A DNA stretch of 64,000 nucleotides, taken from positions 595-64,594 of the forward strand of contig JADFYJ010000006.1 in assembly GCA_015233115.1 (NCBI GenBank), in the 5' to 3' direction. This document shows positions 2,128 to 28,630 of this stretch, piece by piece (positions within the stretch are counted from its first letter, which is position 1; every line of letters begins with the position of its first letter). The stretch comes from Candidatus Omnitrophota bacterium. GTDB lineage: Bacteria > Omnitrophota > Gorgyraeia > Zapsychrales > Zapsychraceae. Position numbers and translations under genes: made by a program. The notes under the pieces are model-generated. The model was not told the DNA's origin. It worked only from the letters and a program-made list of their open reading frames with translations, and did not search any database.

Positions 2128-2128
2128 T

Positions 2129-2157: not shown

Positions 2158-2287
2158 AAAAAGTGAATGATGGTAAAGTGTTCATTGAAAGTTAGGTTAG
2201 GAAGAGAGCAAAGAGCTGATGAGCAAATAAAAATCATTCGTTTTTTCCAATTTTTTATTATCTATCTTTTATTTTTTGAATTTTTTA

Positions 2288-2317
2288 CTACATACCACCT
2301 ACCACATACTACATACG
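2288..2317. repeat. Family-B block (reverse, ACATAC-type)
   Basis: ctacataccacctaccacatactacatacg, located before hydA. Confidence 0.75.
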
Positions 2318-2350
2318 TTTAAATTAGACAAAACAAGGAGTACTTTTCAA

Positions 2351-4093
2351 ATGGGTAAAGCAAATATAAATGGGTTCGCGGTGGAATTTCAGGACGGGAT
2401 GACTATCCTGGACGCGGCGCGGAAAGTCCAAATTGATATTCCAACTCTATGTAAGCATCCGGATGTTTTAGCGTCCGGAGCTTGCGGGATTTGTATTGTG
2501 AAGATGAAGGGGAATAACCGCATGCTGCGCGCGTGTTGTACTCCAATTGAAGAAGGTATGGATATTATTACTCATGACCCGGAGATCGTAGAAACCCGCC
2601 GAACAGTTTTGGAATTGATTTTATCCAACCATCCTAACGATTGTTTGCAATGCGGCCGCAATAATAATTGCGAACTGCAGACTATGGCATCTAATTTTGG
2701 TATCCGCGAAATTCCTTTTCCTAAAGTTGTGCCGGATATCCCCAAAGATACGTCTACGGATGCTATTGTTTTAGACCCGTCAAAATGTATTAAATGTGGA
2801 CGCTGTGTTGAGATGTGCCAGCATGTGCAGGATGTGTGGGCTTTATCATTTTTGGATCGGGGGATTGATACACGTATTTCTCCAGCCGGAGATATTTTAT
2901 TGGGAGATTCTCCTTGCGTGCGTTGCGGCCAGTGTTCAGCGCATTGTCCGACCGGAGCCATATTTGAGCAGGATGATACGGCGAAAGTTTGGAAAGTTCT
3001 TCAGGATCCTGACAAATATTGTGTGGTGCAAATCGCGCCGGCAGTGCGGGTTGCGGTTGGCGAAGGTTTCGGTTTGCCTCCAGGCACAAATTTAACCGGA
3101 AAATTATATACGTTATTACGCCGCTTAGGTTTTAAAGCGGTATTTGACACGAATTTTTCCGCGGATGTGACGATCATGGAAGAAGGATCAGAATTTGTGC
3201 AGAGATTTGTCCATAAAAAAGGCCCGCTGCCTTTGATCACGACTTGCTGTCCGTCGTGGGTGGATTATATGGAGAAATTTGACCCGGATATGATCGAGCA
3301 TTTCTCGTCGGCAAAGTCCCCGCAGGAGATGTTAGGTGCTTTATCCAAAACATATTATGCTCAGAAAAATGACCTGGATCCGGCTAAGATCGTAAATATT
3401 TCGGTCATGCCGTGTACAGCCAAGAAGTATGAGCTTAAACGCAGTAAATCTATGTATTCTTCAGGATACCAGGATACGGATATTGTCATCACGACTCGGG
3501 AACTGATCCGCATGATCAAACAGGCAGGAATTGAATTTACGAATTTACCGGAAGAACAACCGGATCATATCATGGGCGATTATACTGGTGCAGGGACGAT
3601 ATTCGGCGCAACCGGAGGGGTTATGGAAGCGGCTTTGCGTACTGCTTATCATTTGGTCACCCAAAAAGAGCTCGGCCGGGTAGAATTTGAAAATGTCCGC
3701 GGGTTAAAAGGCGTGAAAGAAACATCGGTATTTATAGAAGGGACGGAAATTAAGATTGCTGTAGCCCATGGTTTGGGTAATGTGGAATACGTCATTAATA
3801 AAATTCGTCAAGGCAAAAAAGAAGGAAAAATGCCTTACCATTTCGTCGAAGTTATGGCTTGCCCGGGTGGATGCATCGGCGGAGGCGGTCAGCCTTACGG
3901 TATTACGGACGCGGTCCGCACCCAACGCACTCAAGGGCTATATTCCGACGATGAAAAATCCACATTAAGATGCAGTCATCATAACCCTTATGTGAAAAAA
4001 TTATATGACGAATTTCTGGGCCATCCTTTGAGCCATAAAGCTCATGAGTTGTTGCATACGCGCTATGTTCCAAGGCCGGAGTATAAGAAGTAG
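2351..4093 (+). CDS. hydA: [FeFe] hydrogenase catalytic subunit (HydA) with N-terminal 2Fe-2S and 4Fe-4S domains
   Basis: All three H-cluster motifs are present: TTCCPSW (L1), MPCTAKKYE (L2) and EVMACPGGCIGGGGQP (L3). An AGGAG-like RBS (caaggag) lies 10 nt before the ATG at 2351. The ORF-track start at 2276 would run into intergenic repeat sequence. Confidence 0.9.
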   Translation: MGKANINGFAVEFQDGMTILDAARKVQIDIPTLCKHPDVLASGACGICIVKMKGNNRMLRACCTPIEEGMDIITHDPEIVETRRTVLELILSNHPNDCLQCGRNNNCELQTMASNFGIREIPFPKVVPDIPKDTSTDAIVLDPSKCIKCGRCVEMCQHVQDVWALSFLDRGIDTRISPAGDILLGDSPCVRCGQCSAHCPTGAIFEQDDTAKVWKVLQDPDKYCVVQIAPAVRVAVGEGFGLPPGTNLTGKLYTLLRRLGFKAVFDTNFSADVTIMEEGSEFVQRFVHKKGPLPLITTCCPSWVDYMEKFDPDMIEHFSSAKSPQEMLGALSKTYYAQKNDLDPAKIVNISVMPCTAKKYELKRSKSMYSSGYQDTDIVITTRELIRMIKQAGIEFTNLPEEQPDHIMGDYTGAGTIFGATGGVMEAALRTAYHLVTQKELGRVEFENVRGLKGVKETSVFIEGTEIKIAVAHGLGNVEYVINKIRQGKKEGKMPYHFVEVMACPGGCIGGGGQPYGITDAVRTQRTQGLYSDDEKSTLRCSHHNPYVKKLYDEFLGHPLSHKAHELLHTRYVPRPEYKK

Positions 4094-4997: not shown

Positions 4998-5465
4998 ATG
5001 GGGAAGAAGATAAATAATTCAGGCATGAGTTTAGTTGAGCTCATGGTGGCGTGCGGCATATTGGCTGTCTTCTTTTTGGGAGTAATAATTGTTTTTATTA
5101 AATGTATCCAGATGACTGAATTAGCCCGCAATTCTTCTCTCGCGATGTCGCTCGCGAAAACCCGCATGGAACAAATCCGCTTGCACAATAATATTCCTTT
5201 TAATCAAGTTCTCCTGACATATGATGGAATTATTTTTCCTACACCAGGCCTTAACGGTAAAGGAGTCAGCTATGTTGACGCGGATATCACGAATCCTAAA
5301 TTATTGACTGTAACGGTTGAGGTGTCCTGGAGAGAAAAAAGCGGACTTATTGTGGGAGAAGACAAAAATTTAGACGGTCAATTTGAAGTGGGGGAAGATA
5401 CTCTGGTGGTTAATACCCGCTTAGATTCCCCGGCTGAAATTACAGGGATAATTTATGATTACTAA
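4998..5465 (+). CDS. Minor pilin / pseudopilin with prepilin-type N-terminal motif
   Basis: MGKKINNSG|MSLVELMVACGILAVFF has a Gly-1/Glu+5 prepilin signature followed by a hydrophobic helix. Confidence 0.75.
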   Translation: MGKKINNSGMSLVELMVACGILAVFFLGVIIVFIKCIQMTELARNSSLAMSLAKTRMEQIRLHNNIPFNQVLLTYDGIIFPTPGLNGKGVSYVDADITNPKLLTVTVEVSWREKSGLIVGEDKNLDGQFEVGEDTLVVNTRLDSPAEITGIIYDY

Positions 5466-6171
5466 TGAACGAAAAAATAATAACCGCGCGGGATATAGCC
5501 TTCTTGAGCTGATGGTTGTCATCGCGATTTTAATGATGTTAATGAGCGCGTTATTTCGTCTGTTAGGCCGGGGGAGTGAAGTGTGGACTTTGTCGGATAC
5601 GAAAATTGATTTACAAAGTAATTTGCGATCATTAAGGGACCGGATCGCGGGTGAATTAGAGCAAAGCGGATCAGATGGAACGAACATGAAAGTATTTATT
5701 TCGCAGGGCACGGGAGTCAATAGTTCTGATGTCCTCAAGTTTTCTATTCCTGTTGTGTGTCAGAGCGGGGGAAGTATTATGAATTCTACGGCGGATGTAG
5801 CGTATTGGGGCGCGCCTTTAACGTATGGATGTACAGATTATACTTGCATGGATCATGATAACAATTGCGCGACTATTGATTACACTTGGCTGGTATACCA
5901 GTTAAAGTTAAATACAGATTTAACCCAATTGAATAAAAATAATCCGGTCCAGCAGTATCAACTTGTCCGTCAAGTTTTGGGCGCGGACGGAACAACTGTG
6001 GTGCGCGAAGACGTTATGGGCGCGAATGTGCCTGGTTTTAAAGCGTCCTTTGATACGGCCTCAAACGCGTTGATCACGCTGACTTTGACGGCTTCGGGTA
6101 TTTCGAATTTCCGTCGGACGGTATTGCCAATGACCACGACCTTTGAAGTGAACCTGCGGAATAAGAGGTGA
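5455..6171 (+). CDS. Minor pilin / pseudopilin (PilW/FimT-like) with prepilin N-terminal motif
   Basis: NNRAG|YSLLELMVVIAILMMLMSALF prepilin motif. The start overlaps the upstream gene by 11 nt. Confidence 0.75.
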   Translation: MITNERKNNNRAGYSLLELMVVIAILMMLMSALFRLLGRGSEVWTLSDTKIDLQSNLRSLRDRIAGELEQSGSDGTNMKVFISQGTGVNSSDVLKFSIPVVCQSGGSIMNSTADVAYWGAPLTYGCTDYTCMDHDNNCATIDYTWLVYQLKLNTDLTQLNKNNPVQQYQLVRQVLGADGTTVVREDVMGANVPGFKASFDTASNALITLTLTASGISNFRRTVLPMTTTFEVNLRNKR

Positions 6172-6174
6172 GAC

Positions 6175-7914
6175 ATGAACAATAGTGCCATGATGCGACG
6201 GATGTTGAAACCGCTCCAAAATAAAAAAGGAGTGGCCATGATCTTCACATTTTACCTGATTACCGTACTGATTGTGTTTGTGAGCATCGTCGCGGTGCGG
6301 ACGTTGAATGAAGGCCTGATGGCGAAAAAGGAACGCGAGTCGACAAAAGCTTTTTATTACGCCGAGGCAGGAGCAAACGCGGCTTTGCAGCAGATAGAAC
6401 ATTTTATCAATACCGACCTTTACGCGAACGTTAACAGCGCGTTCAATCCTCAAACTAAAGCTACAGAGATTCAGGGCTACGCGTGGGCCAATAAACCTTT
6501 AGACTTCCTTTTTAATTGTGCGCTTTCGGGAGGAGTAAATGATTTTACATATAACGTGGATAAGACGCAATTATCGAATACCTTGGGGACAACAGTATTG
6601 GGAGATGGCGCGTATACCTATACCGTGACGATCACTCCCAAAAGCACGCCGGTCTCTGTATCCTCTTCTTCCTGGAATTTTTTCTATAATTATAAAATTG
6701 TCGTGTGGGGTATTCGCGGGGCCGTAAATAAAATTATGTCCGCGACGGGTGATTTTCAAGTGACCGTACAAAAAGATAATATCGCGAAATTCGCGGTGAG
6801 CGTTCAGCAACAAAAACTCAAAGATAATACAACGCTAGTATGGTTCAATAATAACACTTATTTTAGAGGGCCGGTCCAATCCAATAATCAGCTCAATTTT
6901 TCCGGAACACCGGAATTTGACGGTGCGGTCACGCAGACTAATAATCTGGCCAATTTTTATAATGGCGGAAATATTAAACAATTGGCCAGCGACCACAATT
7001 CAACTTTGGATGTCCCGGTGTTTAATCAGTCGTTTTCCCGTAACTATCCCGCGGTGAGTCTGGATTCATCCACTGCGCAGACTGATCTTTCAAGTCAAGC
7101 TCAGGGGGCGGTTGCTCTTTCCGGGAACGGAGTTTTTATTCCGAATGATGGCACCAGAGTAACCGGAGGAATATTTACCCGGGGAGATACAACCATCCAG
7201 ATGTCCGTTGATTCGAATGGATATGCGAATTATACCGTAGGCGCTAATGGTACAACTAAAACGATTATTGTGGATCAAGACCATTTGACGACAACGGTCA
7301 AACAGGCAGGGTTAGCGGATGTGGTTTATGTCGGCTTACCTGATGGGGCGAGTAATCAAGGAACTATTATTTATACGGATGGAAAAATAACTAGTTTAAA
7401 GGGGACAGTACAACAAGATACGCAAGTGACTGTTTCCAGTGATGCGGATATTGTGATTACCGATAATATTGTGTATTCGGATTTCACCTCTCAAGTCGGA
7501 AACCCCGCTGATGACGATTATATTCCTCCGTCGGCGGAAGGCGCGAAGAATTTGTTAGGAATATTATCGTGGAACGGTGATGTGCGCGTCGCGGTTCCGT
7601 CAAGCGCGCATAGTGATTTGACCATTGATGGTGTAGTCGTGGCACAAAAAGGGGTATTCCAGGTTGACAGTTACAATTCTGGTTCTCCCCGCGGGACTGT
7701 GACGTTATTAGGAGGATCTATCACCCAAAACTATGGCGCGTTTGGGACGTTTGACGGGTCGACTCAAAGTATGCTGACTGGTTACGCGAGAAATTTTGTT
7801 TATGATTCGCGGACCGGAGCCGGACAATCTCCGCCATATTTTCCGCCTTTAAAAGCGTCAGTGGCTTTTTCCACGGATATAACAGATAAAGTGATTTGGA
7901 GGGAGGGCTTTTAG
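6175..7914 (+). CDS. PilX-N-domain pilus-associated protein (large minor pilin / tip-associated factor)
   Basis: N-terminus KGVAMIFTFYLITVLIVFVSIVAVRTLNEGLMAKKERESTKAFYYAEAGANAAL resembles the PilX N-terminal domain. The remainder is Thr/Asn/Gly-rich and likely beta-rich. Confidence 0.6.
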   Translation: MNNSAMMRRMLKPLQNKKGVAMIFTFYLITVLIVFVSIVAVRTLNEGLMAKKERESTKAFYYAEAGANAALQQIEHFINTDLYANVNSAFNPQTKATEIQGYAWANKPLDFLFNCALSGGVNDFTYNVDKTQLSNTLGTTVLGDGAYTYTVTITPKSTPVSVSSSSWNFFYNYKIVVWGIRGAVNKIMSATGDFQVTVQKDNIAKFAVSVQQQKLKDNTTLVWFNNNTYFRGPVQSNNQLNFSGTPEFDGAVTQTNNLANFYNGGNIKQLASDHNSTLDVPVFNQSFSRNYPAVSLDSSTAQTDLSSQAQGAVALSGNGVFIPNDGTRVTGGIFTRGDTTIQMSVDSNGYANYTVGANGTTKTIIVDQDHLTTTVKQAGLADVVYVGLPDGASNQGTIIYTDGKITSLKGTVQQDTQVTVSSDADIVITDNIVYSDFTSQVGNPADDDYIPPSAEGAKNLLGILSWNGDVRVAVPSSAHSDLTIDGVVVAQKGVFQVDSYNSGSPRGTVTLLGGSITQNYGAFGTFDGSTQSMLTGYARNFVYDSRTGAGQSPPYFPPLKASVAFSTDITDKVIWREGF

Positions 7915-7915
7915 A

Positions 7916-8221
7916 ATGAAATCGAATAAAGCGACAGTGATGATTGTAGCCGGAGCGATTATTTTCATGCTATTACTCGTCAATCATTGGGTATCCCGAC
8001 AAATGAAAGACGCGTTAAATGTGCCGAGAGTTGGCCATAGCATCCCTGTTCAAAAATCTTCAGAACCAAAGGCTGACCCAAAGTTTGATGATGCGGCGCC
8101 AGTATCTTCTGAAGCGCAACCAAAGGTTTTACCCAGAAAACATGGGCATATAAAACGGCCGTTTCCAGTGGTCAGTGAAGAAAAAAGTGATGCACCGCGG
8201 GGCCCGATTTTGGTGCAATGA
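7916..8221 (+). CDS. Hypothetical small membrane protein (one N-terminal TM segment, Pro-rich tail)
   Basis: ORF with a hydrophobic N-terminal segment (VMIVAGAIIFMLLLV). It is translationally coupled to the upstream gene, and no family was recognised. Confidence 0.4.
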   Translation: MKSNKATVMIVAGAIIFMLLLVNHWVSRQMKDALNVPRVGHSIPVQKSSEPKADPKFDDAAPVSSEAQPKVLPRKHGHIKRPFPVVSEEKSDAPRGPILVQ

Positions 8222-8318
8222 CAAAACGCGTGACAGTGTAACAATGTGACAATGAAAAAGCGGTTGGTTGGAAAGGCGCATTACTTTTTTAAATAATAAA
8301 TTAAATTTGAATTAAATA

Positions 8319-8345
8319 TTGCCTGCCTTGTTTTTTTGCTATAAT
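8319..8345 (+). promoter_or_regulatory. Candidate sigma70 promoter for pilMNOPQ
   Basis: TTGCCT (8319-8324), a 15-nt spacer, then TATAAT (8340-8345). The short spacer lowers confidence. Confidence 0.35.
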
Positions 8346-8385
8346 CCATTGTATAAATTCTAACTCATAATTTTACCCTAATAAA

Positions 8386-9441
8386 ATGAACAAATTTTTA
8401 GATACTTATTTTAAAACAATTAAACGGTTTTTACCGGAACGATCTGCGGAAACGTCGGTGGGAATTGACATTGGCACAGGCGAGTGCAAACTCATAGAAC
8501 TGATTAAAAAACAGGACAGTTATGAGGTTGTGAATTGGTCAATTCGTCCGGTCGATAATAATGACATCGCGAGCGCGCTTAAGGCCATGTTGTCGAAATT
8601 AGGCCCTGGAAAACGTTCCATTTACACCTCAGTTTCCGGGCGGGGAACTTTGATCCGTTATATTGAAATGCCGCACATGTCTGTCGAGGACATGAAGAAT
8701 TCTTTCGGATTGGAAGCGGATAAATATTTTCCTTTTGCGCAGAATGAAATTTATTCTGACTGTTCCATCATAGATAATGAGAACAAGAAAAAACTGATGT
8801 ATGTGATGGCTGCGGTTGCCAAAAAAGATATCATTGATCTGCGGATAAAACTTTTAAGTGACTTGGGTTATAAGGTGGATTTTATCGGGCTCAATCCGGT
8901 GGCTTTGGCCAATGTCATGAATACTCTCGGTGCGGGTGAAGAGGCCAAGTCTGAAAAAGCTGTGGCGGTTTTGGACATGGGAGGAACCATCAGCAATTTA
9001 TCCATTTTTATAAAAGACAAACCGTGGTTTACGCGCGATATTTTTGTGGGCGGTCGTGATTTTACAAAACGCATCAGCAATATTTTGGGGGTGGACATGA
9101 ATCAGGCGGAGATATTAAAAACTTCGCCCAGCGATCAGCTGGAAAAAATGCTCGACGCGTGCGACTCTGCGGTGACGAATATTGTGCAGGAAATAAAATT
9201 GTCGTTTGATTATTTTTCAACAGAACGGAATTTTGAAGTTGGAAAATTGCTGTTAACGGGAGGCGCTTCAAAGCTGGAAGGTCTCTCGGCGCGGGTAGAA
9301 AAACATTTGGAAATCCCGGTAGTCTATTGGAATCCATTAAGTTTGGTGAAAATGTCTTCGGATATTTCTCCGGAAGAAATAAAAAAAGAATCCATGAAAT
9401 TAGGCGTGGCTCTCGGGCTCGCATTATATAATTATGATTGA
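8386..9441 (+). CDS. pilM: Type IV pilus assembly protein PilM (actin-like ATPase fold)
   Basis: VGIDIGTGECKLIEL phosphate-1-like motif. The gene is 351 aa and is followed by pilNOPQ. Confidence 0.85.
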   Translation: MNKFLDTYFKTIKRFLPERSAETSVGIDIGTGECKLIELIKKQDSYEVVNWSIRPVDNNDIASALKAMLSKLGPGKRSIYTSVSGRGTLIRYIEMPHMSVEDMKNSFGLEADKYFPFAQNEIYSDCSIIDNENKKKLMYVMAAVAKKDIIDLRIKLLSDLGYKVDFIGLNPVALANVMNTLGAGEEAKSEKAVAVLDMGGTISNLSIFIKDKPWFTRDIFVGGRDFTKRISNILGVDMNQAEILKTSPSDQLEKMLDACDSAVTNIVQEIKLSFDYFSTERNFEVGKLLLTGGASKLEGLSARVEKHLEIPVVYWNPLSLVKMSSDISPEEIKKESMKLGVALGLALYNYD

Positions 9442-10018
9442 AATTAACCTCACACCACCGGAAGCGCGGAAAAAACGTACAGCTGGCGGCTTTATGAAGG
9501 GCCTGAGTGTGCCATTGGAAGTGATCATTGGCTTAGGCGGTGGTTTATTAATGTTACTGTTGTGTATTTATGTGGTACTGGTTTTCGCGAACCTGGGCAA
9601 AGCCGCTGAGCTGCGGTCATTGAATAAACAGTGGGAACAATTACAGCCGGAGAAAAAAGAAATTGATGCGGTATTAAGTGATTTGCGCTCTTTGCAGTCC
9701 ATTAAGAAAGATGTACAAAAAATTTGCAACGCGAACCGTATCCGTTGGTCTCGGAAGTTGAATATCATCACAGATGTTATTCCCAAAGGCGTCTGGCTGA
9801 TCAGAATTGATGCGGGCGACGCCAGTCTTTTTATTAAAGGCCGGGCGCTTTCAAAGCAGGGAGAGGAATTAAGGAATATTCATGCCTTTGTCGCGAATTT
9901 GAAAAACAATCCGGATTTTATGAGTGAGCTTAAAGATGTGGAATTGGGAAATATTCAATCTGTTAAAGTGAGCGGCGTTGATGTATCAGAGTTTTCGATC
10001 AAGGTGGTCTTAAAATGA
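9434..10018 (+). CDS. pilN: Type IV pilus assembly protein PilN
   Basis: Single N-proximal TM segment followed by a coiled-coil. Its position between pilM and pilO is typical, and its start overlaps pilM. Confidence 0.75.
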   Translation: MIEINLTPPEARKKRTAGGFMKGLSVPLEVIIGLGGGLLMLLLCIYVVLVFANLGKAAELRSLNKQWEQLQPEKKEIDAVLSDLRSLQSIKKDVQKICNANRIRWSRKLNIITDVIPKGVWLIRIDAGDASLFIKGRALSKQGEELRNIHAFVANLKNNPDFMSELKDVELGNIQSVKVSGVDVSEFSIKVVLK

Positions 10019-10617
10019 AAAAAGTGGAACTATTAGAAAAATATCGGGCTTTTGTGGAAAACATGGATGAAAAAACCCGCTATTATATTTTTGGTGGGAT
10101 ATTGTTACTGGTATTTTTATTGTGCTATTTTATTTTTATCCACCCGCAATTAGCATCTTTATCAAAAATATCTCCTGAGCTTGACCTGGTGCGGGAGGAT
10201 ATCAAAAAATTGAAAAATGACCGGCAACAAATTAACCAATACAAGAAGCAGGTCGCGGATTTAACCAAAGACACGGAGAAATTAAGTTTACGGATCCGGC
10301 CCAAAGAAGAAGTATCTGTGGTTATTGAATCGATTTCGCATTTGGCGAATAAATACAATGTGAAACTGGATCAGATTAATCCTAATTTGTCTGACCAACA
10401 AAAAATCATGGACAGTCAGGGGAAATCATATTACCGGCTTCCTATTTTAATCGACGGGCGGAGTGGTTATCATGATTTTGGCAGATTTTTAAATGCGTTA
10501 GAAATGAGCGATATTTATATAGAAGTGCAAAAATATTCCATTTTTCCGTCAGAAATCCAGCGTTTGCAAAAAGTCACCATTACATTGAATGCCGTGGTTT
10601 TTGATGCGGGGAAATGA
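10015..10617 (+). CDS. pilO: Type IV pilus assembly protein PilO
   Basis: N-terminal TM segment and a coiled-coil. Its start overlaps pilN by 4 nt, and it is the right size for PilO. Confidence 0.7.
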   Translation: MKKVELLEKYRAFVENMDEKTRYYIFGGILLLVFLLCYFIFIHPQLASLSKISPELDLVREDIKKLKNDRQQINQYKKQVADLTKDTEKLSLRIRPKEEVSVVIESISHLANKYNVKLDQINPNLSDQQKIMDSQGKSYYRLPILIDGRSGYHDFGRFLNALEMSDIYIEVQKYSIFPSEIQRLQKVTITLNAVVFDAGK

Positions 10618-10657
10618 TAAAAGTGGTAAACGTGGTAGAGGTGATAAAGGTGGTAAA
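10613..10657. repeat. 9-mer tandem repeat (GTGGTAAAS/GTGATAAAG x5) at pilO/pilP junction
   Basis: tgataaaagtggtaaacgtggtagaggtgataaaggtggtaaagg. Confidence 0.7.
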
Positions 10658-10715
10658 GGAAAAAACGACTGATCAAAAACGTAGGGGCGCCCTGGTTTTT
10701 AAAAAAAACACAAAC

Positions 10716-11066
10716 ATGAAAAAGAAATCATTATTTTTATTATTTGTTGTTATGATGTCGGCGGTAGCTTATGCGGCTGAGCCTGCGCTCGATTACAATG
10801 ACCATAACAAACGTGATCCTTTTTGGAGTTTGGTCAGCACGAGCGGCACCATTCTTAATTTCGACACGGAATACTCTTTATCGGAATTAAATATTGAAGG
10901 GATCATTATGGGTAAGGCAGGGGACAATATGGCCATTATCGGCGGGAAGATTGTAAAAAAAGGCGAACTCTTGGGACAATATATGGTGGTAGAGATTCAA
11001 ACAGATAAAGTTATCTTGTCAGCTGGCGGGAAAATTTCTGAAGTTAAAATGAATAAGGGAGAGTGA
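10716..11066 (+). CDS. pilP: PilP-like pilus assembly lipoprotein (signal peptide)
   Basis: The start chosen is MKKKSLFLLFVVMMSAVAYA, a signal peptide. The longer ORF-track start at 10614 reads through a 9-mer tandem repeat and is unlikely to be real. Confidence 0.6.
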   Translation: MKKKSLFLLFVVMMSAVAYAAEPALDYNDHNKRDPFWSLVSTSGTILNFDTEYSLSELNIEGIIMGKAGDNMAIIGGKIVKKGELLGQYMVVEIQTDKVILSAGGKISEVKMNKGE

Positions 11067-11067
11067 T

Positions 11068-12723
11068 ATGAAAAACCAAACTTTGCTTGTGAGCGTGATT
11101 TTTTTACTCGCCATGACAGCTGCGGCTTTTGCGGAAGAAAAAACTAAAACAACAGCTGGATCGGCGGCGGCTCCGGCAGCGGCTCCGGCAGCGGCTTCAG
11201 TTGCGGCGCAAGCTACCGCGCCTTCAGCAGAGGCTGCCGCGTCACCTACAAAAGAATCAGGGCCAGTTTATGTCCCAATTGTTTCAACTCCCATTGGGGC
11301 TTCACCCTCAAAAAATGTTCCCATAAAATCAACTCCTACCGGTGTAACGGCTGTACCTATGGAAGCTAGTGTTTATGTTTCCTCGGATACCAGCGTTCCT
11401 GCTGTGCCTATAACGGCGGAAGTTAGTCAGGGGGGTAATGTGAGTTTGGATTTTAAAGACGCGGACATCAAGAATGTGCTTAAAATTTTGGCATTTAAAA
11501 GCGGGGTTAATATTGTTCCTGCTCCAGATGTAACGGGTGTGGTTTCGATCCAGCTTAATGACGTTCCGTGGGAACAGGCTTTGGATGTTATTTTAAGAAC
11601 TTATGGCTATGCTTATGAAAAAAAGGGTAATATTATTTTGGTTATGACTGTGGATGGTATGAAAAAACGGCGGGAAGATTCTATTGCTCTGGCAGAGCAA
11701 GAAACATTTATCACCAAAACTTTTTCTTTAAATTACGCGAAAGCCGCGGATGTGTTGACTTCCATTTTAAAAATGAAGTCTGAGAAAGGGAGTGCGGAAG
11801 TGGATGAACGCACCAATACCTTGATCGTGACAGATACGGCTAGCCGGATTGAGCTGATTGAAAGCGTGATTAAAAAATTGGATCGGACGACACCACAGGT
11901 TTTGATCGAAGGGAAAGTTGTGGAAACAGACGTTAATAATGGAGATGATTTAGGGATCAAATGGAATCCGCAGGTATCTATATCAGGTCCGAAGCGGCCT
12001 TACTTATTCCCCTTTAAACAAATATCTAAAGCTCCTTCAAAAAATGATGCCACAACGAGCACTGTGAATTCGGATGGGACAGTGACTACGGTTCATTTTC
12101 CTGATCAATTCCCTGCCGCTCCTACCTCAGCGTTTGGTTATGGAACTTTAGATTTTACCTCTTTTTCCGCAACTATGAAATATTTAGAAAGCCGCAGCAG
12201 CACCAATATTCTTTCCAGCCCAAGCATTACAACTTTGGATAATCAGACCGCCAAGATTGATGTGGGGCTGAAATATCCGCTTCCTACTTTCTCGTTTAGT
12301 CAGCAGACCAACACGATTCAGCTTTCCGGTTACAATTACCAGGATATAGGAGTTTCATTTATTGTGACCCCGCATGTCAACAGCGCTGAAATGGTGACTT
12401 TGGAAGTTGAGCCAAAAATTCAGAGCAGGGGGGATAATGTGGCGATGGAAGGTGTGAACATACCCATTATAAATAACCAATCCGCAAAGACGACAGTTTT
12501 GATTAGAAGCGGTGATACTTTGGTTATAGGCGGTTTAATTACTAAGCAAAAGAATGATACCAGAACGAATGTGCCGTTTTTGTCGCGCATTCCTTTACTT
12601 GGATACTTTTTCAAAAATAAAAGTGCGACTGAAACAAAGACGGATTTGATTATTTTTATTACTCCGCACATTGTCACTCCGGAATCGCCGAGTACAGTGG
12701 TTGCAACAACAGGAAAATCATAG
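11068..12723 (+). CDS. pilQ: Type IV pilus secretin PilQ
   Basis: Signal peptide, an Ala/Pro-rich linker and a C-terminal secretin domain (…TVLIRSGDTLVIGGL…VPFLSRIPLLGYFF…LIIFITPHIV). Confidence 0.9.
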   Translation: MKNQTLLVSVIFLLAMTAAAFAEEKTKTTAGSAAAPAAAPAAASVAAQATAPSAEAAASPTKESGPVYVPIVSTPIGASPSKNVPIKSTPTGVTAVPMEASVYVSSDTSVPAVPITAEVSQGGNVSLDFKDADIKNVLKILAFKSGVNIVPAPDVTGVVSIQLNDVPWEQALDVILRTYGYAYEKKGNIILVMTVDGMKKRREDSIALAEQETFITKTFSLNYAKAADVLTSILKMKSEKGSAEVDERTNTLIVTDTASRIELIESVIKKLDRTTPQVLIEGKVVETDVNNGDDLGIKWNPQVSISGPKRPYLFPFKQISKAPSKNDATTSTVNSDGTVTTVHFPDQFPAAPTSAFGYGTLDFTSFSATMKYLESRSSTNILSSPSITTLDNQTAKIDVGLKYPLPTFSFSQQTNTIQLSGYNYQDIGVSFIVTPHVNSAEMVTLEVEPKIQSRGDNVAMEGVNIPIINNQSAKTTVLIRSGDTLVIGGLITKQKNDTRTNVPFLSRIPLLGYFFKNKSATETKTDLIIFITPHIVTPESPSTVVATTGKS

Positions 12724-21205: not shown

Positions 21206-24200
21206 ATGTCTCAATTTCGTTTTAGTTTTTGGACTAAATTGGTGTGTTCTTTTTTGTCAGTGATTTTTGCCTTGCAATGCGTTTATCCTTTGCAAGCCGC
21301 GAAAGCTGATGTCTTAACCCTTCCGGCTCCTGGATCAATGGTCAGCATGAGTCCGGCATTCGTTCCAACTTTATTGCGCGGCATGACTGTTCATCCTGAT
21401 AATCCGCTTCGCTTTGATTTTATTTTAGATAAGGGCGAAGCGGAGTCACAAGGTCACAAAGACACAAGGTCACAAAGGGAAATAAGAATTGAAACGGAAA
21501 AGTTGGTAAATTATTTCCTCGCGTCTATGACAGTTCCAGAAAAAGATTTATGGGTCAATCTTTCCCCGAACGAACCAAACCGGATTGTTTCCAAAGATTT
21601 AGGCAAAACTGAAATGGGCCGGGATTTGCTGGCTCAAGATTATATCCTAAAACAATTAACGGCTTCTTTAATGCAGCCGGATGGAGAAGCAGGCAGGGAA
21701 TTGTGGTCCAGAATTTATGAACGGGCTAAAAAAGAATTAAACACGACAGATATCCCTTTAGACACTTTTAACAAAGTCTGGATCCTGCCCGAAAGCGCGA
21801 CCATTTACGAACACAACAATACCGTCTATATCACAGACGCGAAATTGAAGGTTATGACAGATAGTGATTATAATACTAGTTTTAAACAAACTGTCATTCC
21901 CGCGAAAGCGGGAATCCAATTAACTTCTTTAATTAAAAAAATTATCATCCCCGAAATCGAAAAAGAAGTGAACACCGGCAAAAATTTTGCCCAGCTTCGC
22001 CAGATTTATTATTCACTCATTCTCGCCAAATGGTACAAAGACGTAGTCCGAAACAGTCTGCTTGAGAAAGTGTATATTGGAAAAAATAAAGTCGACGGCC
22101 TTGATTTAAACCCAAACCAAACACTTTCTCCGGCCAATATTTACAAACAATACATGTCCGCCTTCAAACAAGGCGTTTACAACAAAATTAAAGAAGAATA
22201 CGACCCCCAAACTCAGCAAATCATAGCCCGAAAATATTTTTCCGGCGGGTTTCAAGACACGGCCATGACCATTAAACAAGCCGACGCAGCGCAGATTACT
22301 CAGGCGCAAGAAGGCGAACAAAGTAGTGTGGCCGTCACATTAGACAACATTTCTGTAAGTCAAGAACCAGAAATAACTGAAAAAAATTTAAATGATTCTG
22401 AACGGATTATTTATAATAAAATTCAATTTCCTGTTTCTCCGGCACTTATCAGAGAAATTAAGAAGAGTAAGAAATTAGCCGAGACATTTTGTCTAATAAC
22501 TGGTATGGAGAAAAATGATTCGTTGCTGGCACAATTTTTGTTGTTTCATTTGTTTATCCGTATGTCAAAAGCAGAAGAGGGAGCTGTTGCAAATGAATTT
22601 TATTCATCGGCAGGTTTATTAAATCCATCTTATCAAGAAAGGCTGCCGGACGAATTAAGAAAAGATCCTCTTAAAGTGTTAAATGATTTTTTAACTGAAA
22701 CTGGGAGGGAAGAACTGCGTGCTAAGAATTTTGAAAATTGGGATGACTTCAAAGATTATTTGCTGAAAACTGATCAAGAGCCGTTATGGGAAATTTTTCA
22801 AGAATGGGTTGCTGCGCTGCCATATCGGAAATTTTTTGAGTTAGCGCATATTGAAAAAGCAGCGCAGTTTTTAAGTACCCGTCCGGATATGGTCCCTGAA
22901 GGTTTCCGGGAATCATTTGAAGTATTTCAAGACCGTGGAAAACCTGCGCCGATCGAAGAAATCGTGTCTGTTGTTGAAGATAATTATGGTCCTTTGGAAA
23001 ATTTATGTGAGAAGCGGCAGGATATCAAGGAAGGAGATAATCCTTATTTAAAACGGCTTAATGTGGGTACTGTCGCCGATACATTTTTGGTGACTTTAAA
23101 GAATGGTCAGCAGGAAGCTTGGAAAATCGTGGCTCCAAGCAAAGAAGCAAAGATTCGTCAAGGTCTTGAAACGCTGCGGGAAGTTATGGGTGAACTCGAA
23201 AAAAACAAAGTTTTTTTTGCCGGCAATGAAACTATCCGGTTATCCCCTGTAAGATTTTTTAAGGAATTTGAAAAAGCAGTGCTCAGAGAACTGGATATGA
23301 ATACTGAAGCAAAGCAGGCACGCGATATGATCCCTCATTTTCCAAAAGGGTTTGCTAAACCTGAAATTAGAGAAAGTAAAAAGCAGATCCTTCGCATGGG
23401 TTTTATCAATGGAACTAAAATAACTTTAGTTACGGACACTGAAATTAGAAAACGCCTAGCGAAAAAGATATTGCCTTTAATTGGTTTACAGGCGTTAGGA
23501 GATGAAATTTTTCATGCGGATCCCCACCCGGGAAATATTTTTTATATTGAAGAAACCGGTGAGATTGTTCTTTTTGATTTTGGTCAGGTGGGGTATTTGA
23601 CGAAGTCCGTGCGAAGGGATTTGGTAAATTTGGCGGTTCAAATTTTACAGCATAGAGAGCAGCGCGGTTTACATCAGGTCATGTACCATGCTATAGGGAA
23701 AATTTTACAATCCAAAATTGCTGCGAAAATGGCAAGATGGGGTTTATTTAATTATTATTGGTATCAAGAGCAAAAAAATCAGAAGAGACCCCAATCTAGC
23801 CCGGATTCAATCCGAAAAACAGAAAATCGACAGAAAGATCACGAATCTGAAATATCATTTGAATCCACCTTGGACTTTGATGATGTGCTTAAAAAAATGG
23901 TTGAAACGACACCCCTTAATATTGATGAAATTTTGGATTTTCTTGAGTTAAAAGGGATACAGAATACAGGATATAACCGTGACAGTTTACACGCAAAAAT
24001 ATCTGAAATCCTCACATCAAAAAGTATTCAAGGGTGGAAAGAGCAACAGCCTTATATTATGGTTGACCGCCTTGTGTATGAAGCAGAAGCTCTTGGGTTG
24101 ATTATTCAGACGCCATATTCTTCCATCATATCGCATATAATGACGTTTGCTCATAAATATGCAGATATGGACGACAATATTGAAGCGGATGAGATCGGAT

Positions 24201-25441
24201 TTAAAACCGAAGTCTCTTCAATTCTGAGATTCCGAAGGGAAGGCGAAAGCATTTTTCCTGTTGTACACCGCATCTTTTTAGCCGCAGACCGGTTTGGATA
24301 TCCGATATTGTCATCTGCCTCAATGCTGATCAAATCCTTACTTTTAGCCGAAGGCGTCCAACGGACGCTGAAACAAAATTTGGAAGGCAGGAATGATTCA
24401 AACGATTCAGCCATGACCATCAAACACGCCGACGCCGCGCAGATAACCCGTGCACAAGTAGGCGAACAAAGTCGAGGCAAAGTTACATTGTCTGATCATG
24501 CGATGCAACAAATTATTTTACCGGATTACGCTGGCAATTTAGACCCATTAGCCTTAGGTGAAAAGCCTAGGAAAGTGATTGAATTAATGCGGAAGGGGCT
24601 CAATGTTCCGAAATTTTTTGTCATAAAATCTAATGGGACGGGAAAACTGGAAATTACAGATGAATTAAGGCGGGTTTTTGATTCTTTTAAAAAACCGGTT
24701 ATTGTCCGCAGTGCGCATCCTATGGAAGGCGGCGAACATCCCTTTCCTGGTATATTTAACAGTTACTCAGCAGTCAGTTATTTGGCTTTCGAAGATATTC
24801 CTGATGGTATACGGCCTGATGCCGAGGGCAAATGGGATAAAGATCCATTAAGCGTTGATTGGGCATATGAAGATATGGTGGAAACAGCATCACCAGATTG
24901 GAATGATAAATTAGATAAATATTTGAAAGCCAATGCTATTAAAGATTTTGATCCAAAAGCAATGGATGCGGTTTTGATGGAACAAGTTGACGTGGAAGTG
25001 TTTGGTATGTTTTTTACAGAAAGCCAAATCCATCCTAATAAAATTGAGATTCGTTATATTATCCCAGACACAAATGATGGCGGAATTATATTGTTTGATA
25101 AAACAACTCAATCACTCGAAGAAAATTCTTTACCACAACGTATCCAGGAAGTTCTTACGGAATTTGGAAAAACTGCGCAAAAGATTCATGACATATATGG
25201 TTTTCAACAAATTGAGTTAGCGTCTTCTAAAATTGATAAAAAGGTTTATGTTTTTCAATCCAGAAATTTTCCTATTGGCGATCCAAACAACGTGGCTCGT
25301 TATCCTGAATATCAAACCATCATGACGCCTAATGCGGTACTTGGTTATGGTGATTATAATCTGCCGGTTATAGTTTTAGATGGGTTAGATAGTGTCACAA
25401 AATATAAGGAAGATCCAAAATATCGAGCCTTGAGTGAATAA
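21206..25441 (+). CDS. Giant multidomain protein: signal peptide/anchor + unknown N-domain + UbiB/ABC1-type atypical kinase domain + PPDK_N/PEP-utilising-enzyme ATP-grasp-like domain; internal repeats
   Basis: N-terminus MSQFRFSFWTKLVCSFLSVIFALQCVYPLQAAKA is signal-like. The ABC1/UbiB hallmarks LSTRPDMVP, AWKIVAP (Lys), HADPHPGNIFY and DFG are present. At the C-terminus, ...NVPKFFVIKSNG... and KPVIVRSAHPMEGGEHPFPGIFNSYSAV resemble PPDK_N VAVRSSAxxEDxxxxSFAGQ. The motif SAMTIK[QH]ADAAQIT appears twice. Confidence 0.6.
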   Translation: MSQFRFSFWTKLVCSFLSVIFALQCVYPLQAAKADVLTLPAPGSMVSMSPAFVPTLLRGMTVHPDNPLRFDFILDKGEAESQGHKDTRSQREIRIETEKLVNYFLASMTVPEKDLWVNLSPNEPNRIVSKDLGKTEMGRDLLAQDYILKQLTASLMQPDGEAGRELWSRIYERAKKELNTTDIPLDTFNKVWILPESATIYEHNNTVYITDAKLKVMTDSDYNTSFKQTVIPAKAGIQLTSLIKKIIIPEIEKEVNTGKNFAQLRQIYYSLILAKWYKDVVRNSLLEKVYIGKNKVDGLDLNPNQTLSPANIYKQYMSAFKQGVYNKIKEEYDPQTQQIIARKYFSGGFQDTAMTIKQADAAQITQAQEGEQSSVAVTLDNISVSQEPEITEKNLNDSERIIYNKIQFPVSPALIREIKKSKKLAETFCLITGMEKNDSLLAQFLLFHLFIRMSKAEEGAVANEFYSSAGLLNPSYQERLPDELRKDPLKVLNDFLTETGREELRAKNFENWDDFKDYLLKTDQEPLWEIFQEWVAALPYRKFFELAHIEKAAQFLSTRPDMVPEGFRESFEVFQDRGKPAPIEEIVSVVEDNYGPLENLCEKRQDIKEGDNPYLKRLNVGTVADTFLVTLKNGQQEAWKIVAPSKEAKIRQGLETLREVMGELEKNKVFFAGNETIRLSPVRFFKEFEKAVLRELDMNTEAKQARDMIPHFPKGFAKPEIRESKKQILRMGFINGTKITLVTDTEIRKRLAKKILPLIGLQALGDEIFHADPHPGNIFYIEETGEIVLFDFGQVGYLTKSVRRDLVNLAVQILQHREQRGLHQVMYHAIGKILQSKIAAKMARWGLFNYYWYQEQKNQKRPQSSPDSIRKTENRQKDHESEISFESTLDFDDVLKKMVETTPLNIDEILDFLELKGIQNTGYNRDSLHAKISEILTSKSIQGWKEQQPYIMVDRLVYEAEALGLIIQTPYSSIISHIMTFAHKYADMDDNIEADEIGFKTEVSSILRFRREGESIFPVVHRIFLAADRFGYPILSSASMLIKSLLLAEGVQRTLKQNLEGRNDSNDSAMTIKHADAAQITRAQVGEQSRGKVTLSDHAMQQIILPDYAGNLDPLALGEKPRKVIELMRKGLNVPKFFVIKSNGTGKLEITDELRRVFDSFKKPVIVRSAHPMEGGEHPFPGIFNSYSAVSYLAFEDIPDGIRPDAEGKWDKDPLSVDWAYEDMVETASPDWNDKLDKYLKANAIKDFDPKAMDAVLMEQVDVEVFGMFFTESQIHPNKIEIRYIIPDTNDGGIILFDKTTQSLEENSLPQRIQEVLTEFGKTAQKIHDIYGFQQIELASSKIDKKVYVFQSRNFPIGDPNNVARYPEYQTIMTPNAVLGYGDYNLPVIVLDGLDSVTKYKEDPKYRALSE

Positions 25442-28400
25442 TTGGTCCTCGCGAGAAGAAGTGGTGAAATCGAAAAGGAAAGACGACTAAGTGATTTGAA
25501 TGAAAATCTAATAGATCAAGCCCGGGAAAAATATAGAGAAGAATTGAGGAGATTTATTAGTAAACATCCAGAATATATTCTTGTCATTAAAGACGCGGAG
25601 GATTTAGCTTATTATCCTGCTGGTGATGATATTTGGACTACCAAAAATTATTCTTTTGTAAATGAACTCTCTGCCAAAGCCAAGGTCGTTATTAAAGGAA
25701 AGTACCAAAATGCAATTCGCCATGAAGATTGGGATAACATTGAGATGGGCGGGATTGTCATTGAACCGAAACAGGATGATCGGGTTATGAAAGCATTTTT
25801 TAGTACAAAGCCGGACTCATTTAAAGAAGAACCCACTTGGGTTATAGGTAAAACAGATAATATAAAAAAATTAGGTGTCAAAAGAATTCACACGGGGGAT
25901 TTTCTACATGTTTTATCAAATACAGATGGTTGTTTTATTTGGTATGGGGAAGAGGAGCATCGGGATTCAGCCATGATCATTAAGCAAGCCGATAAAGCTA
26001 TGGTTAAAAAGGGATCAGTTAATGAACAACAAAAGCTGATTACAGTGGAATTGGCTGACTATTCAATGAATTCGCTTTCTGACATTGAGGGTGTTGGCAG
26101 CATTTCATCTGCGATTAAAGATAAATATTTAAGTTCTGCGATGGAGCAGCAATTCATTATGTTAAAGAAGCGGCTTCCGAATCTGGACGTAACAAGTTTA
26201 TTATTATTTTACGGGAGAATTCTTGGCTTCCTCAATACCAGAACGCCCAAAAATCAGGAACGGTTTGATTTTTTACCAATTCCGGAATTTATTAAGCAAG
26301 AGGTTTTTGCCGCAAAAAATATTAAGGATTATAAGGAAGGGATGTACGTAGTAGAAGAAACTTTGAAGCGTTACGAAAAACAAGTATTTTTCGATAGCCC
26401 TTACTGGCTTGATAAAGTTATGAAAAACGTAAAAATAAATGGTGGCGCATCCGGTGAAATTATATTAAGGGATTTACTCGTGCTTATGAGGAGAGGTGTT
26501 TTTGCCTATTTATCCCAGTATCTCTACAGAATAGGCGGTGCCTCATCCATTACAGAATTGTTACAGGAACGTCACTACACGAAAGTATCTATGCCTCACA
26601 TTGGTGGTCAAGAACAGTTTCTTCCTGTAAGTGAGTTAGTTCCAATACAAGATATTTTAGAAAAATATCACTTGGATTCTGAAGGAAAACCTATTGGTAG
26701 CGTAAAAGACAAGGCCATGTCAAGTAAGGTTGCCGCTTTTAACCCTTCCTTTATATTAAAAATGCGTCTGGCTGTTTCTATGCTGCCGAATGTTCAAAAA
26801 GGTGAATATAGCCGGGAAGCGTTTATAAATCATTTGGATTTGCCTGATATTTATGAGCAGGCATTTGCCATTGCGAATCCGGGTAAAATTTTACAGGAAG
26901 AGGACCGTAAAAGATTACAGCAGTTGTCTTTGCATGTAACGCAGGTATTAACGGCTTGGCTGGATCAGCGTACGAAAATTCCGGATGATTCAATGGTGTG
27001 GTTGTTAAGCATTATTTTTCATGATGTCGGCAAAGTGGTTGCTTTGCAAAATCATGAAGAGTTAAGTGATAAATTTTTAACGGAAAACCTGGTTATTGAA
27101 AAATTTGTTGCGAGCGGATTGATTAACACGAAGCAGGCGGATCTGATTAAATTGCTGGTGCGGTATCATTTGCCTTTGGGCCTTATGTTTATGGGAGAAA
27201 TGAACTTTAATGATTGGAAAGATTTTTTCCGCGATGCCCGATTAAGAACTTTAGTGAAACAAGGGGTGCTTTTAAAAGACATTTTACAGCAAATTAAACG
27301 CATCACATTTTTTGATCAAACCGCGTATTCTCCAGCGGCCCCTTTCAAAACAGTTTTACAATTTCAGGATGAAATTATTGAGCAGTTAAGCGAGATAGAT
27401 ATTGACGCGAATGATATCGATGCAAAATTGGATGTTATGAGCGCTGATTTTATTAAGTCAAGGATCAAGGGTTTGGTGAGTTGGGGGGATATTAATTTAG
27501 ATCAGCCTAAGGTTTATTATGATGAATTGATGCGGAATGTGATATATCGTTTTAAGACCATTGAACCTGGTTTTGATTCTACAAGAATGTATCATGTATT
27601 ATCGCGAATAAATTTACGTCAATTTTGTATTATTGCCGCGTCTTTAGCTTGGGTCGCAGAACAGCCTAATAGTTTTGAAGAGTTTGTTCCTGCCGCGGAA
27701 AATTTTCGTAACATATCTGCAGGCGCGCAAATAAATGTCAATTTTGTAAAATTGCTTTCTGTTATAGTGTCGCAGGTTAAAACTGTGAATTTTTCTCATG
27801 TGGTGATCGAAGGTTCAGACGGCCAGGCTCCCAGCCGGGTTGTTGCGGATGATCCTTACCAGTTTGCAAAGTTTGTTTATGAATTAAATAATATTTTGAG
27901 TAAAGAACAGTCCGTGGACCAGCAGGGCAATAACTTTTTCTTTTTGGATGAACACGGACAGCGGCTGAGTGATATAACCAGAATGGTTATTGACGAGCAG
28001 GCAGCAACATTAAAAATTATCATTGATAGCGGGACGACGGCTGTGAAAAATGAACAAAAACAGGAGCCGGTTGTTGCTCAACCCGAGATCGAACAGCATC
28101 CGGGGGAGTTAATTCCGTTCAATCGCGCGAAGATTAATCCACTACTCACGACCATGCAAACCGTTAAGTTAAGCTTTTTGCCGGCAGGGCAAAGCATCCT
28201 GTTCAATGTGAGCGGCACGATAACACATTTTGTGGATTTTAGTGTTGGAGATCCTGACGATAAAAGGTTTATTATTACGATTCTACCGGAGGATGAACCG
28301 GAAGAAAAAGCATACATTTTAACAGTAGGAAATGTTGATACTGATGTCGAAGGAACAGCCGCTCAATTAAAAATAGTTGATTCCGCAGTACTTTCTGACG

Positions 28401-28630
28401 TTGGTGGTATTGATATGACCAAGGTTGGGTTTAAGCGGGAAGCAAGCCCTGCATCCCACGTGGTGCAGGGTAAACATGAAATTATTTTTAATTTTGACCC
28501 GGCCATGCTGGAACAATTTCAATCTGGAAATTTCAAAAGTTTTCAGGCTGTTATCACAAATGTGACGCCTTTGCCAAGCGTCCTGCCGCTTTTGGGTTTA
28601 TCGCTGGATAAAAAGAATAAGGCTGGTTAG
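25442..28630 (+). CDS. Second large ORF in the same frame (separated from the previous ORF by a single TAA): HD-domain phosphohydrolase-containing multidomain protein
   Basis: It continues the frame of 21206..25441 immediately after the TAA. The HD signature is ...WLLSIIFHDVGKVV... with downstream His/Asp. A third copy of the SAMIIKQADKA repeat is present. The true start is unclear; the track shows a TTG directly after the stop. Confidence 0.5.
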   Translation: MVLARRSGEIEKERRLSDLNENLIDQAREKYREELRRFISKHPEYILVIKDAEDLAYYPAGDDIWTTKNYSFVNELSAKAKVVIKGKYQNAIRHEDWDNIEMGGIVIEPKQDDRVMKAFFSTKPDSFKEEPTWVIGKTDNIKKLGVKRIHTGDFLHVLSNTDGCFIWYGEEEHRDSAMIIKQADKAMVKKGSVNEQQKLITVELADYSMNSLSDIEGVGSISSAIKDKYLSSAMEQQFIMLKKRLPNLDVTSLLLFYGRILGFLNTRTPKNQERFDFLPIPEFIKQEVFAAKNIKDYKEGMYVVEETLKRYEKQVFFDSPYWLDKVMKNVKINGGASGEIILRDLLVLMRRGVFAYLSQYLYRIGGASSITELLQERHYTKVSMPHIGGQEQFLPVSELVPIQDILEKYHLDSEGKPIGSVKDKAMSSKVAAFNPSFILKMRLAVSMLPNVQKGEYSREAFINHLDLPDIYEQAFAIANPGKILQEEDRKRLQQLSLHVTQVLTAWLDQRTKIPDDSMVWLLSIIFHDVGKVVALQNHEELSDKFLTENLVIEKFVASGLINTKQADLIKLLVRYHLPLGLMFMGEMNFNDWKDFFRDARLRTLVKQGVLLKDILQQIKRITFFDQTAYSPAAPFKTVLQFQDEIIEQLSEIDIDANDIDAKLDVMSADFIKSRIKGLVSWGDINLDQPKVYYDELMRNVIYRFKTIEPGFDSTRMYHVLSRINLRQFCIIAASLAWVAEQPNSFEEFVPAAENFRNISAGAQINVNFVKLLSVIVSQVKTVNFSHVVIEGSDGQAPSRVVADDPYQFAKFVYELNNILSKEQSVDQQGNNFFFLDEHGQRLSDITRMVIDEQAATLKIIIDSGTTAVKNEQKQEPVVAQPEIEQHPGELIPFNRAKINPLLTTMQTVKLSFLPAGQSILFNVSGTITHFVDFSVGDPDDKRFIITILPEDEPEEKAYILTVGNVDTDVEGTAAQLKIVDSAVLSDVGGIDMTKVGFKREASPASHVVQGKHEIIFNFDPAMLEQFQSGNFKSFQAVITNVTPLPSVLPLLGLSLDKKNKAG

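Follow-up and report, generated by a model that had tools for sequence, protein, structure and literature searches.

Does a lone stop codon between two giant open reading frames mark a boundary between genes, a site of programmed recoding, or a lesion in what was once a single gene? The question is raised by a locus on a 64,000-nucleotide stretch of a Candidatus Omnitrophota metagenome-assembled genome (MAG) (contig JADFYJ010000006.1, positions 595 to 64,594 of the forward strand; the whole stretch is herein referred to as the window, whose own numbering is used throughout), in which two long open reading frames (ORFs) abut in the same frame. Reading across the junction gives ...CGA GCC TTG AGT GAA TAA TTG GTC CTC GCG..., and the elements concerned are as follows:

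21206-25441, + strand: ORF1, 1411 amino acids (aa), ATG start (MBF0478685.1, HQL26_04310)
25439-25441, + strand: in-frame TAA, context GAA TAA T, separating ORF1 from ORF2
25442-28630, + strand: ORF2, 1062 codons, beginning with the TTG right after the stop and in the same frame as ORF1

The product of ORF1 is 100% identical to MBF0478685.1, and ORF2 read from its codon 19 (TTG 25496, the start chosen by NCBI) is MBF0478686.1 (HQL26_04315, 1044 aa); NCBI annotates HQL26_04310 and HQL26_04315 as two "hypothetical protein" entries, on a 149,334-bp contig of a MAG assigned to Candidatus Omnitrophica. Exact-match queries of an assembly index with ORF1 and with EF-Tu gave no hit. The letters and the ORF coordinates agree on a single TAA followed by 1062 further codons of the same frame, as a first-pass annotation of this DNA had reported, and its figure of ~2470 aa for an ancestral protein matches the fused count (1411+1+1062 = 2474 codons). 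An open frame of 1062 codons past a stop has a probability of ~4e-32 by chance given the base composition (stop probability 0.066 per random codon), and the remaining two frames across the ORF2 stretch contain 74 and 108 stops. Comparison with homologous sequences identifies ORF1 and ORF2 as two halves of one gene by descent, and we consider it probable that a real, non-programmed nonsense mutation has split this gene, which would otherwise encode a multi-enzyme protein of ~2,474 residues.

The order of parts in the fused protein is signal/anchor helix, head, DxAM linkers, ABC1 kinase, PPDK-like ATP-grasp module, HD-like module and C-terminal tail. ORF1 contains the signal/anchor helix, the head, a linker, the ABC1 kinase-containing module, a further linker and the first ~310 aa of the ATP-grasp module; ORF2 contains the last ~172 aa of this interrupted module, linkers, an unknown module, the weak HD-domain module and the family tail. 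The parts recognised individually are:

21206-22255, + strand: N-terminal hydrophobic helix and ~320-aa Omnitrophota head (LPAPG...VHPDNPLRFDFILDKG...RKYFSGG), single copy in the window
22256-22341, + strand: linker repeat copy 1 (DTAMTIKQADAAQITQAQEGEQS), following the head
22856-23659, + strand: ABC1/UbiB-type atypical kinase domain (ORF1 aa 551-818; PF03109, 89.9 bits)
24404-24489, + strand: linker repeat copy 2 (DSAMTIKHADAAQITRAQVGEQS), in ORF1 ahead of the interrupted module, 79% nucleotide identity with copy 1
24494-25963, + strand: interrupted ~490-aa module between two DxAM linkers, the stop being module residue 326
25964-25992, + strand: linker repeat copy 3 (DSAMIIKQAD), in ORF2 right behind the module, 86% nucleotide identity with copy 2
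26939-27172, + strand: weak HD-domain match (ORF2 aa 500-577; PF01966, E 0.03, under the gathering score)
28403-28627, + strand: C-terminal ~70-aa family tail (GGIDM...FNFDPAMLEQFQ...VITNVTPLPSVLPLLGL), single copy in the window

The head occurs in the window solely at the N-terminus of ORF1 and the tail, whose motif can also be given as GGIDM...DPAMLEQFQ...LPLLGL, solely at the C-terminus of ORF2. The linker (DxAM-TIKQAD...) is recognisable at the DNA level in three copies (22256, 24404 and 25964; 79-86% identity), two in ORF1 and one in ORF2, and the same linker type thus flanks the stop on either side. Three such repeats in one gene are also potential recombination substrates and may allow cargo modules to be swapped or deleted. 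The kinase domain belongs to the ABC1/UbiB family (89.9 bits for PF03109 against a gathering score of 22.9); assignment to the UbiB equivalog was rejected, the score of 118.8 bits for TIGR01982 falling under the equivalog cut-off of 487.6.

The stop falls within a module whose N-part is an ATP-grasp domain of the PPDK_N/PEP-synthase/rifampin-phosphotransferase type and whose conserved C-part reads AKVVIKGKYQNAIRHEDWD ... TGDFLHVLSNTDGCFIW. An AlphaFold model of the module (predicted local distance difference test (pLDDT) 70.8 overall) retrieved rifampin phosphotransferase, PEP synthase and PPDK structures with Foldseek (5hv2, E 2.9e-9; 2ols, E 4.9e-9; 1kbl, E 8.9e-7), and the N-part shares with these enzymes, at the pLDDT of only 70.8 of the model, the ATP-grasp fold. 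At the sequence level PPDK_N and PEP synthase are matched weakly and likewise in the N-part only, the matches lying in the motifs G-x-K, VRSS...F(A/S)G and Q-x-IE...Q-x-R. The module of the window differs from these enzymes in scoring below the Pfam threshold (16.4 bits for PF01326, gathering threshold 27), in having no identified substrate-binding domain, and in that its C-part has no match to the phosphohistidine swivel/mobile domain (PF00391, TSHAAI motif); 4 of 10 family members do match PF01326, with a best E of 1.6e-8. The C-part has an invariant His in AIRHEDW, and that this residue is equivalent to the phosphohistidine His and the C-part a swivel domain is a guess, because no PF00391 match is detectable. 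The C-part, which is encoded by ORF2, accompanies the N-part in every full-length homologue, and all residues invariant in the family are kept in the window. Module residue 326, at which the stop is located, lies in a confidently modelled helical stretch (blocks 301-380, pLDDT 78-90) between a strand (293-302) and a helix (333-364).

The homologues encode this module without interruption. A search with the module returned nine database proteins (32-41% identity, 81-98% of the module covered), all of them continuous over the junction. When GTDB genome and JGI metagenome contigs were scanned with a module profile, 18 loci were obtained; the module is one open frame in 16 of these (the exceptions being L003 and L012), and the loci that cover the stop position are continuous in 15 of 16 cases, with L003 as the exception. 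An exhaustive hidden Markov model (HMM) search of 1.84 billion cluster representatives yielded 34 proteins at E<=1e-30, of which 16 (460-2766 aa) match essentially the full-length profile unbroken; among the proteins of the HMM search, only the window's own ORF1 and ORF2 (P0143, P0156) end or start at the stop point. Elsewhere the module is either standalone (~480-560 aa) or embedded in proteins of up to 2766 aa. The column occupied by the stop is a sense codon in all nine loci that have this column (GAG twice, CGA twice, CGG, AAA twice and GCA twice, corresponding to E, E, R, R, R, K, K, A and A), and a single substitution suffices to convert GAA or AAA to TAA. The spacing between the VFGMF and AIRHEDW motifs, which is 238 aa when read over the stop, is 224-248 aa in four intact homologues. 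The complete architecture of head, DxAM linkers, cargo including the module, and tail is moreover found inside one ORF in the closest relatives that bear the module (L001, 2336 aa; L004/L005, 1364 aa; P0134; P0135). ORF1 and ORF2 are hence one gene by descent, because the boundary between them lies inside a module that is continuous in homologues and because a head and a tail that belong to one architecture are distributed over the two ORFs. The first-pass annotation had listed three explanations without ranking them, of which a nonsense mutation or sequencing error in one gene is retained on these grounds.

The two exceptional loci differ from the window. L003 (10001-11510 of CAVYLG010000005.1, MFD01476.bin.2.120) carries at least four frameshifts within 1.5 kb, in an otherwise head-bearing 1231-aa ORF, which are more suggestive of indel errors in a long-read assembly than of a biological event. 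In L012 (~5887-5889 of JGI Ga0075122_10005468), a standalone homologue of the module, CAA has become TAA at the family-invariant Gln of the VYQAR/VFQSR motif; this TAA is the only break in the gene, which is otherwise intact, and its site is unrelated to that of the window's stop.

No recoding signal is apparent at the junction. TAA ends 25 of the 43 ORFs of at least 150 aa in the window, including rpoB, rpoC, tuf and ribosomal-protein genes, and an alternative code with reassigned TAA is excluded because of this usage. The tetranucleotide TAA-T terminates 14 ordinary ORFs in the window, and UAA followed by U is the most efficient termination context in bacteria. Over the 125 nucleotides downstream of the stop, we found no stimulatory RNA structure (minimum free energy -15.8 kcal/mol; mean of shuffled sequences -16.2; z = 0.13), and no suppressor tRNA is encoded in the window, where the tRNAs are tRNA-Thr(GGT) and tRNA-Trp(CCA). 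No promoter or terminator signal near the junction rises above shuffled sequences.

Signals for restarting translation are similarly poor. The duplex predicted between the anti-Shine-Dalgarno sequence and the region upstream of TTG 25442 has an energy of -2.2 kcal/mol, which is at background level (median inside the gene -2.6; median of the 42 scored ORF starts of the window -4.8) and bears out the earlier remark that ORF2 begins at the TTG adjoining the stop with no evident ribosome-binding site. The start chosen by NCBI is the next to be considered:

25496-25498, + strand: TTG, codon 19 of ORF2, with a AAAGGAAAG motif (AAGGA) upstream, -5.5 kcal/mol, ~16 nucleotides away

With its motif at this distance, TTG 25496 is a poor restart site. 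The first in-frame ATG comes 102 codons past the stop, within the conserved C-part of the module. The Met codon within the DSAM linker (ATG 25973, preceded by an SD-like (Shine-Dalgarno-like) AGAGGAG, -8.0 kcal/mol) was also considered as a restart site and rejected as an implausible rescue, given a spacing of ~15 nucleotides and a position beyond the module.

The gene belongs to a family that we define here provisionally, that appears to be Omnitrophota-specific and that may be undescribed. Its pattern consists of an N-terminal head (LPxPG...VHPDNPxxFDF...RKYFSGG, ~320 aa), DxAM linkers and a C-terminal GGID...LGL tail (consensus GGIDL...PVIINIQPM..L..FLGL, ~70 aa), all three of which are present in the window gene (21206-22255 and 28403-28627), with further examples at L001 4724-11734, L004 289-4380 and among proteins P0010-P0129. 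At least 1,169 proteins match the head at E<=1e-10, nearly all of them unnamed, and the named ones derive mostly from Omnitrophota MAGs. The cargo enclosed by head and tail includes ABC1 kinase, PPDK-like ATP-grasp, HD, deaminase, methyltransferase, HAD and HEAT domains. The head has no detectable match to a Pfam or NCBIfam model, and its structural model (pLDDT 81) no significant match in the PDB or BFVD.

Other members of this family are disrupted, as seen in cases that were chosen because they look truncated and that say nothing about frequency. In L019 (~7943-7955 of ENA ERZ27253680 k141_3120948; protein P0080), the head gene ends in RKYFSGGV* at a G8 homopolymer, and with one G less the sequence would read ...GIDHAM..., the frame entering a DHAM linker and running toward downstream genes of 886 and 1471 aa. 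The 347-aa product of this gene is called in two independent assemblies (the second being JGI 3300050821), and the G8 break could reflect slipped-strand phase variation or a fixed frameshift; no homopolymer phase-variation tract of this kind is present at the head end of the window's gene. L020 (1692-7034 of JGI Ga0207051_1009; P0038) has a head-only ORF, then an IS256-type transposase (PF00872), then an 876-aa ORF, and appears to be a family member disrupted by an insertion sequence (IS). In L023 (2514-2516 of JBGGHG010002536.1, NCBI GCA_041643115.1; P0044), a lone in-frame TAG stands three codons past the NKAM linker behind the head, and the frame runs on as a 1285-aa ORF. P0123, finally, appears to be genuinely head-only.

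How recent the TAA may be can be gauged from ORF2 itself. Among all single substitutions in ORF2, 4.7% would make a stop, which corresponds to ~1.5 new stops per 1% of neutral divergence with indels uncounted, and the 3.2 kb of ORF2 contain no second lesion and retain every conserved residue. The TAA is hence very recent (well under ~2% divergence), or a strain variant or consensus error, or else ORF2 is still under selection. Given that ORF2 shows no other decay, the lesion would be either of very young age or a strain variant that is segregating.

These observations bear directly on the competing explanations. An origin as ancestrally separate neighbours that share a frame by coincidence would agree with the annotation of two hypothetical proteins by NCBI, and by chance one in three neighbouring pairs is expected in the same frame, as exemplified by the sole other such adjacent pair in the window (5455-6171 / 6175-7914). 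That pair, however, has AAGAGG and an ATG directly after its stop (TGA 6169-6171), as befits a normal boundary between a pilin-like protein and a DUF4900 protein, whereas ORF1 and ORF2 have no intergenic spacer, ribosome-binding site or ATG between them and meet midway through a module that every homologue makes as a single polypeptide, with the head and tail divided between them; separate origin is effectively refuted. The suggestion of two translationally coupled genes fails as an account of how the pair arose, there being no split homologue, no ribosome-binding site and no in-frame ATG for 102 codons, and homologues encode a continuous module where a pair of genes with a stop and a ribosome-binding site would have spoken for two proteins. 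Programmed readthrough, or suppression by a tRNA, would have a fraction of ribosomes yield the 2,474-aa protein and the gene thus produce two isoforms. A bare, lone in-frame stop with a long in-frame ORF behind it is what such a mechanism would leave, and L023 provides a second family member with a lone in-frame stop after the head. Known bacterial and phage readthrough nevertheless mainly involves UGA, and the stop considered here stands in a UAA-U context, TAA is the terminator used most often, neither downstream structure nor a suppressor tRNA is apparent in the window, every relative has a sense codon and the stop is conserved in no homologue (none above 45% identity being available). The other interruptions in the family also differ in kind and position (the G8 frameshift, the IS insertion, the TAG in a linker and the TAA at the invariant Gln), and because of this diversity sporadic damage and turnover in a fast-evolving family fit better than one recoding mechanism. 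We therefore regard readthrough, which the first-pass annotation had proposed as an option, as highly improbable.

A real split might instead be tolerated, with re-initiation at TTG 25442 or 25496 and the two polypeptides either rejoining the module non-covalently or acting independently. The stop and TTG abut (TAATTG), an arrangement compatible with termination-reinitiation, ORF2 is open over its 1062 codons, and the helical insert in which the stop lies is variable and separates the N-part of the module from its C-part; PEP-synthase-like enzymes with their ATP-binding and His-carrying parts on separate subunits do exist, phenylphosphate synthase being an example. Against this, neither TTG has a Shine-Dalgarno sequence at a useful distance, none of the 34 strong homologue matches is split at the stop point, ORF1 lacks the tail present in intact relatives, and ORF2 has neither the N-terminal signal/anchor nor the head, both of which are kept by ORF1, which would probably place the two products in different locations; we judge a tolerated split to be improbable. 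An assembly or consensus artefact, or a minority strain variant, deserves more credence and is nonetheless unlikely: the dominant genotype would have a sense codon such as GAA and encode one 2,474-aa protein, and the T would be an error of base calling, polishing or strain mixing. ORF2 is wholly undecayed with its invariant residues all present, one substitution is enough, and the sequence comes from a single MAG with no second assembly; consensus sequences of MAGs do mix strains. Assembly errors, however, are mostly indels or fall in repeats, and here there is a clean substitution in unique sequence. The assembly does not seem to be generally error-ridden, because the other long genes of the 64 kb are intact (rpoB, 1162 aa; rpoC, 1376 aa; fusA, 697 aa; rpsA, 515 aa). 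Related genes are often really disrupted in other assemblies, one of them identically in two independent assemblies, and for this reason a real lesion is not unlikely a priori. Several observations do weigh against a real nonsense mutation: no relative above 45% identity was found in any collection searched, so that true orthologues are not among the compared sequences; both window proteins are singletons at 90% clustering and derive from one MAG, with no near-identical contig in the genome or metagenome contig collections; the helical insert that contains the stop is subfamily-specific, 6 of 9 standalone homologues being without it, and a break there might be structurally tolerable; and an intact ORF2 of 1062 codons is equally expected under assembly error or under continued translation and selection.

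We hypothesize that a single-base change turned the codon of a charged residue within the ATP-grasp module (Glu, Lys, Arg or Ala in homologues) into TAA, and we infer that the T is truly present in the genome. Ribosomes would stop at this codon, because TAA is a normal and efficient terminator in this genome, and the product would be a truncated 1,411-aa protein in which the head and kinase module are kept, the ATP-grasp module is broken and the tail is gone. ORF2 would be at most weakly re-initiated, because it is without the head, a signal sequence or a convincing ribosome-binding site, and would effectively be a fresh pseudogene remnant.

A nonsense-interrupted gene is an already known, ordinary phenomenon. 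The window shares with such genes in bacterial genomes and MAGs an in-frame stop in a conserved domain, halves homologous to one protein, a second half without start signals and an annotation as two "hypothetical proteins"; it differs from them in nothing essential and is unusual for the size and modularity of the gene and for the lack of a close orthologue that would allow the lesion to be dated. With cases of programmed readthrough (the Qbeta coat/A1 protein; leaky UGA), it shares a stop followed by a long in-frame extension. Those cases, in contrast, mostly involve UGA in weak contexts and are conserved, whereas the stop in the window is UAA-U, is unconserved, has no stimulatory structure and falls within a domain, not at the edge of one.

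Long "multi-enzyme" proteins of Omnitrophota have been described in which unrelated enzyme domains (kinase/phosphotransferase, HD, methyltransferase, HAD and others) are tiled behind an N-terminal signal or membrane segment (bioRxiv 10.64898/2026.06.07.730766), and giant genes of this phylum are the subject of further reports (bioRxiv 10.1101/2023.11.21.568195; PMC10066038). The window protein has the same phylum and tiling and is far smaller (2.5 kaa vs >=10 kaa, that is, thousands of amino acids). Keyword searches of these three sources brought up no description of the head, the DxAM linkers or the tail, and likewise nothing on in-frame stops, readthrough or pseudogenes.

By analogy, MARTX-type multi-effector toxins also have conserved ends around variable, cytoplasm-type enzyme modules joined by stereotyped linkers, as in the family of the window; no sequence or structural homology between them and the window protein was found, and neither a protease domain nor repeats nor secretion genes were identified for the latter. 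One could conceive of premature stops, homopolymer frameshifts and IS insertions as a recurrent, possibly selected switch that turns off or trims the cargo of exported head-cargo-tail proteins, perhaps effectors delivered to a host or prey, in which the TAA would be one such state and some of the downstream product would continue to be made by readthrough or re-initiation at a low level. We give such a switch only a slim chance, and the delivery of ATP-dependent enzymes into another cell, behind what appears to be an export signal, is speculation by comparison with such toxins.

The gene is situated in ordinary chromosome, after plsC and before rpsA, tyrS, tRNAs and nusG. Farther upstream are genes for an [FeFe]-hydrogenase, minor pilins with pilMNOPQ, RNase G, obg, proB/proA, nadD, phosphoglucomutase and plsC, with two blocks delimited as follows:

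394-4093: [FeFe]-hydrogenase pair
4998-12723: type IV pilus block (minor pilins, pilM/N/O, secretin), upstream of the housekeeping genes

ORFs sized as rpoB, rpoC, fusA and tuf follow downstream (assigned by size and order only). Of 46 ORFs with a length of 150 aa or more, 43 lie on the + strand and the remaining three, which are on the - strand, overlap longer + strand ORFs; GC skew is positive over the whole window (1-64000), with the cumulative skew rising monotonically.

Recognition of ORF1 and ORF2 as parts of one gene corrects the annotation, HQL26_04310 and HQL26_04315 being halves of one gene or a fresh pseudogene, and removes one candidate for stop-codon recoding in bacteria. The locus also points to a possibly undescribed large family in which a conserved head and tail surround interchangeable enzyme modules. 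Its genes are frequently encountered in disrupted form, an observation of possible relevance to the way in which large multi-enzyme proteins are deployed and turned over by these bacteria, which are ultra-small and probably depend on a host.

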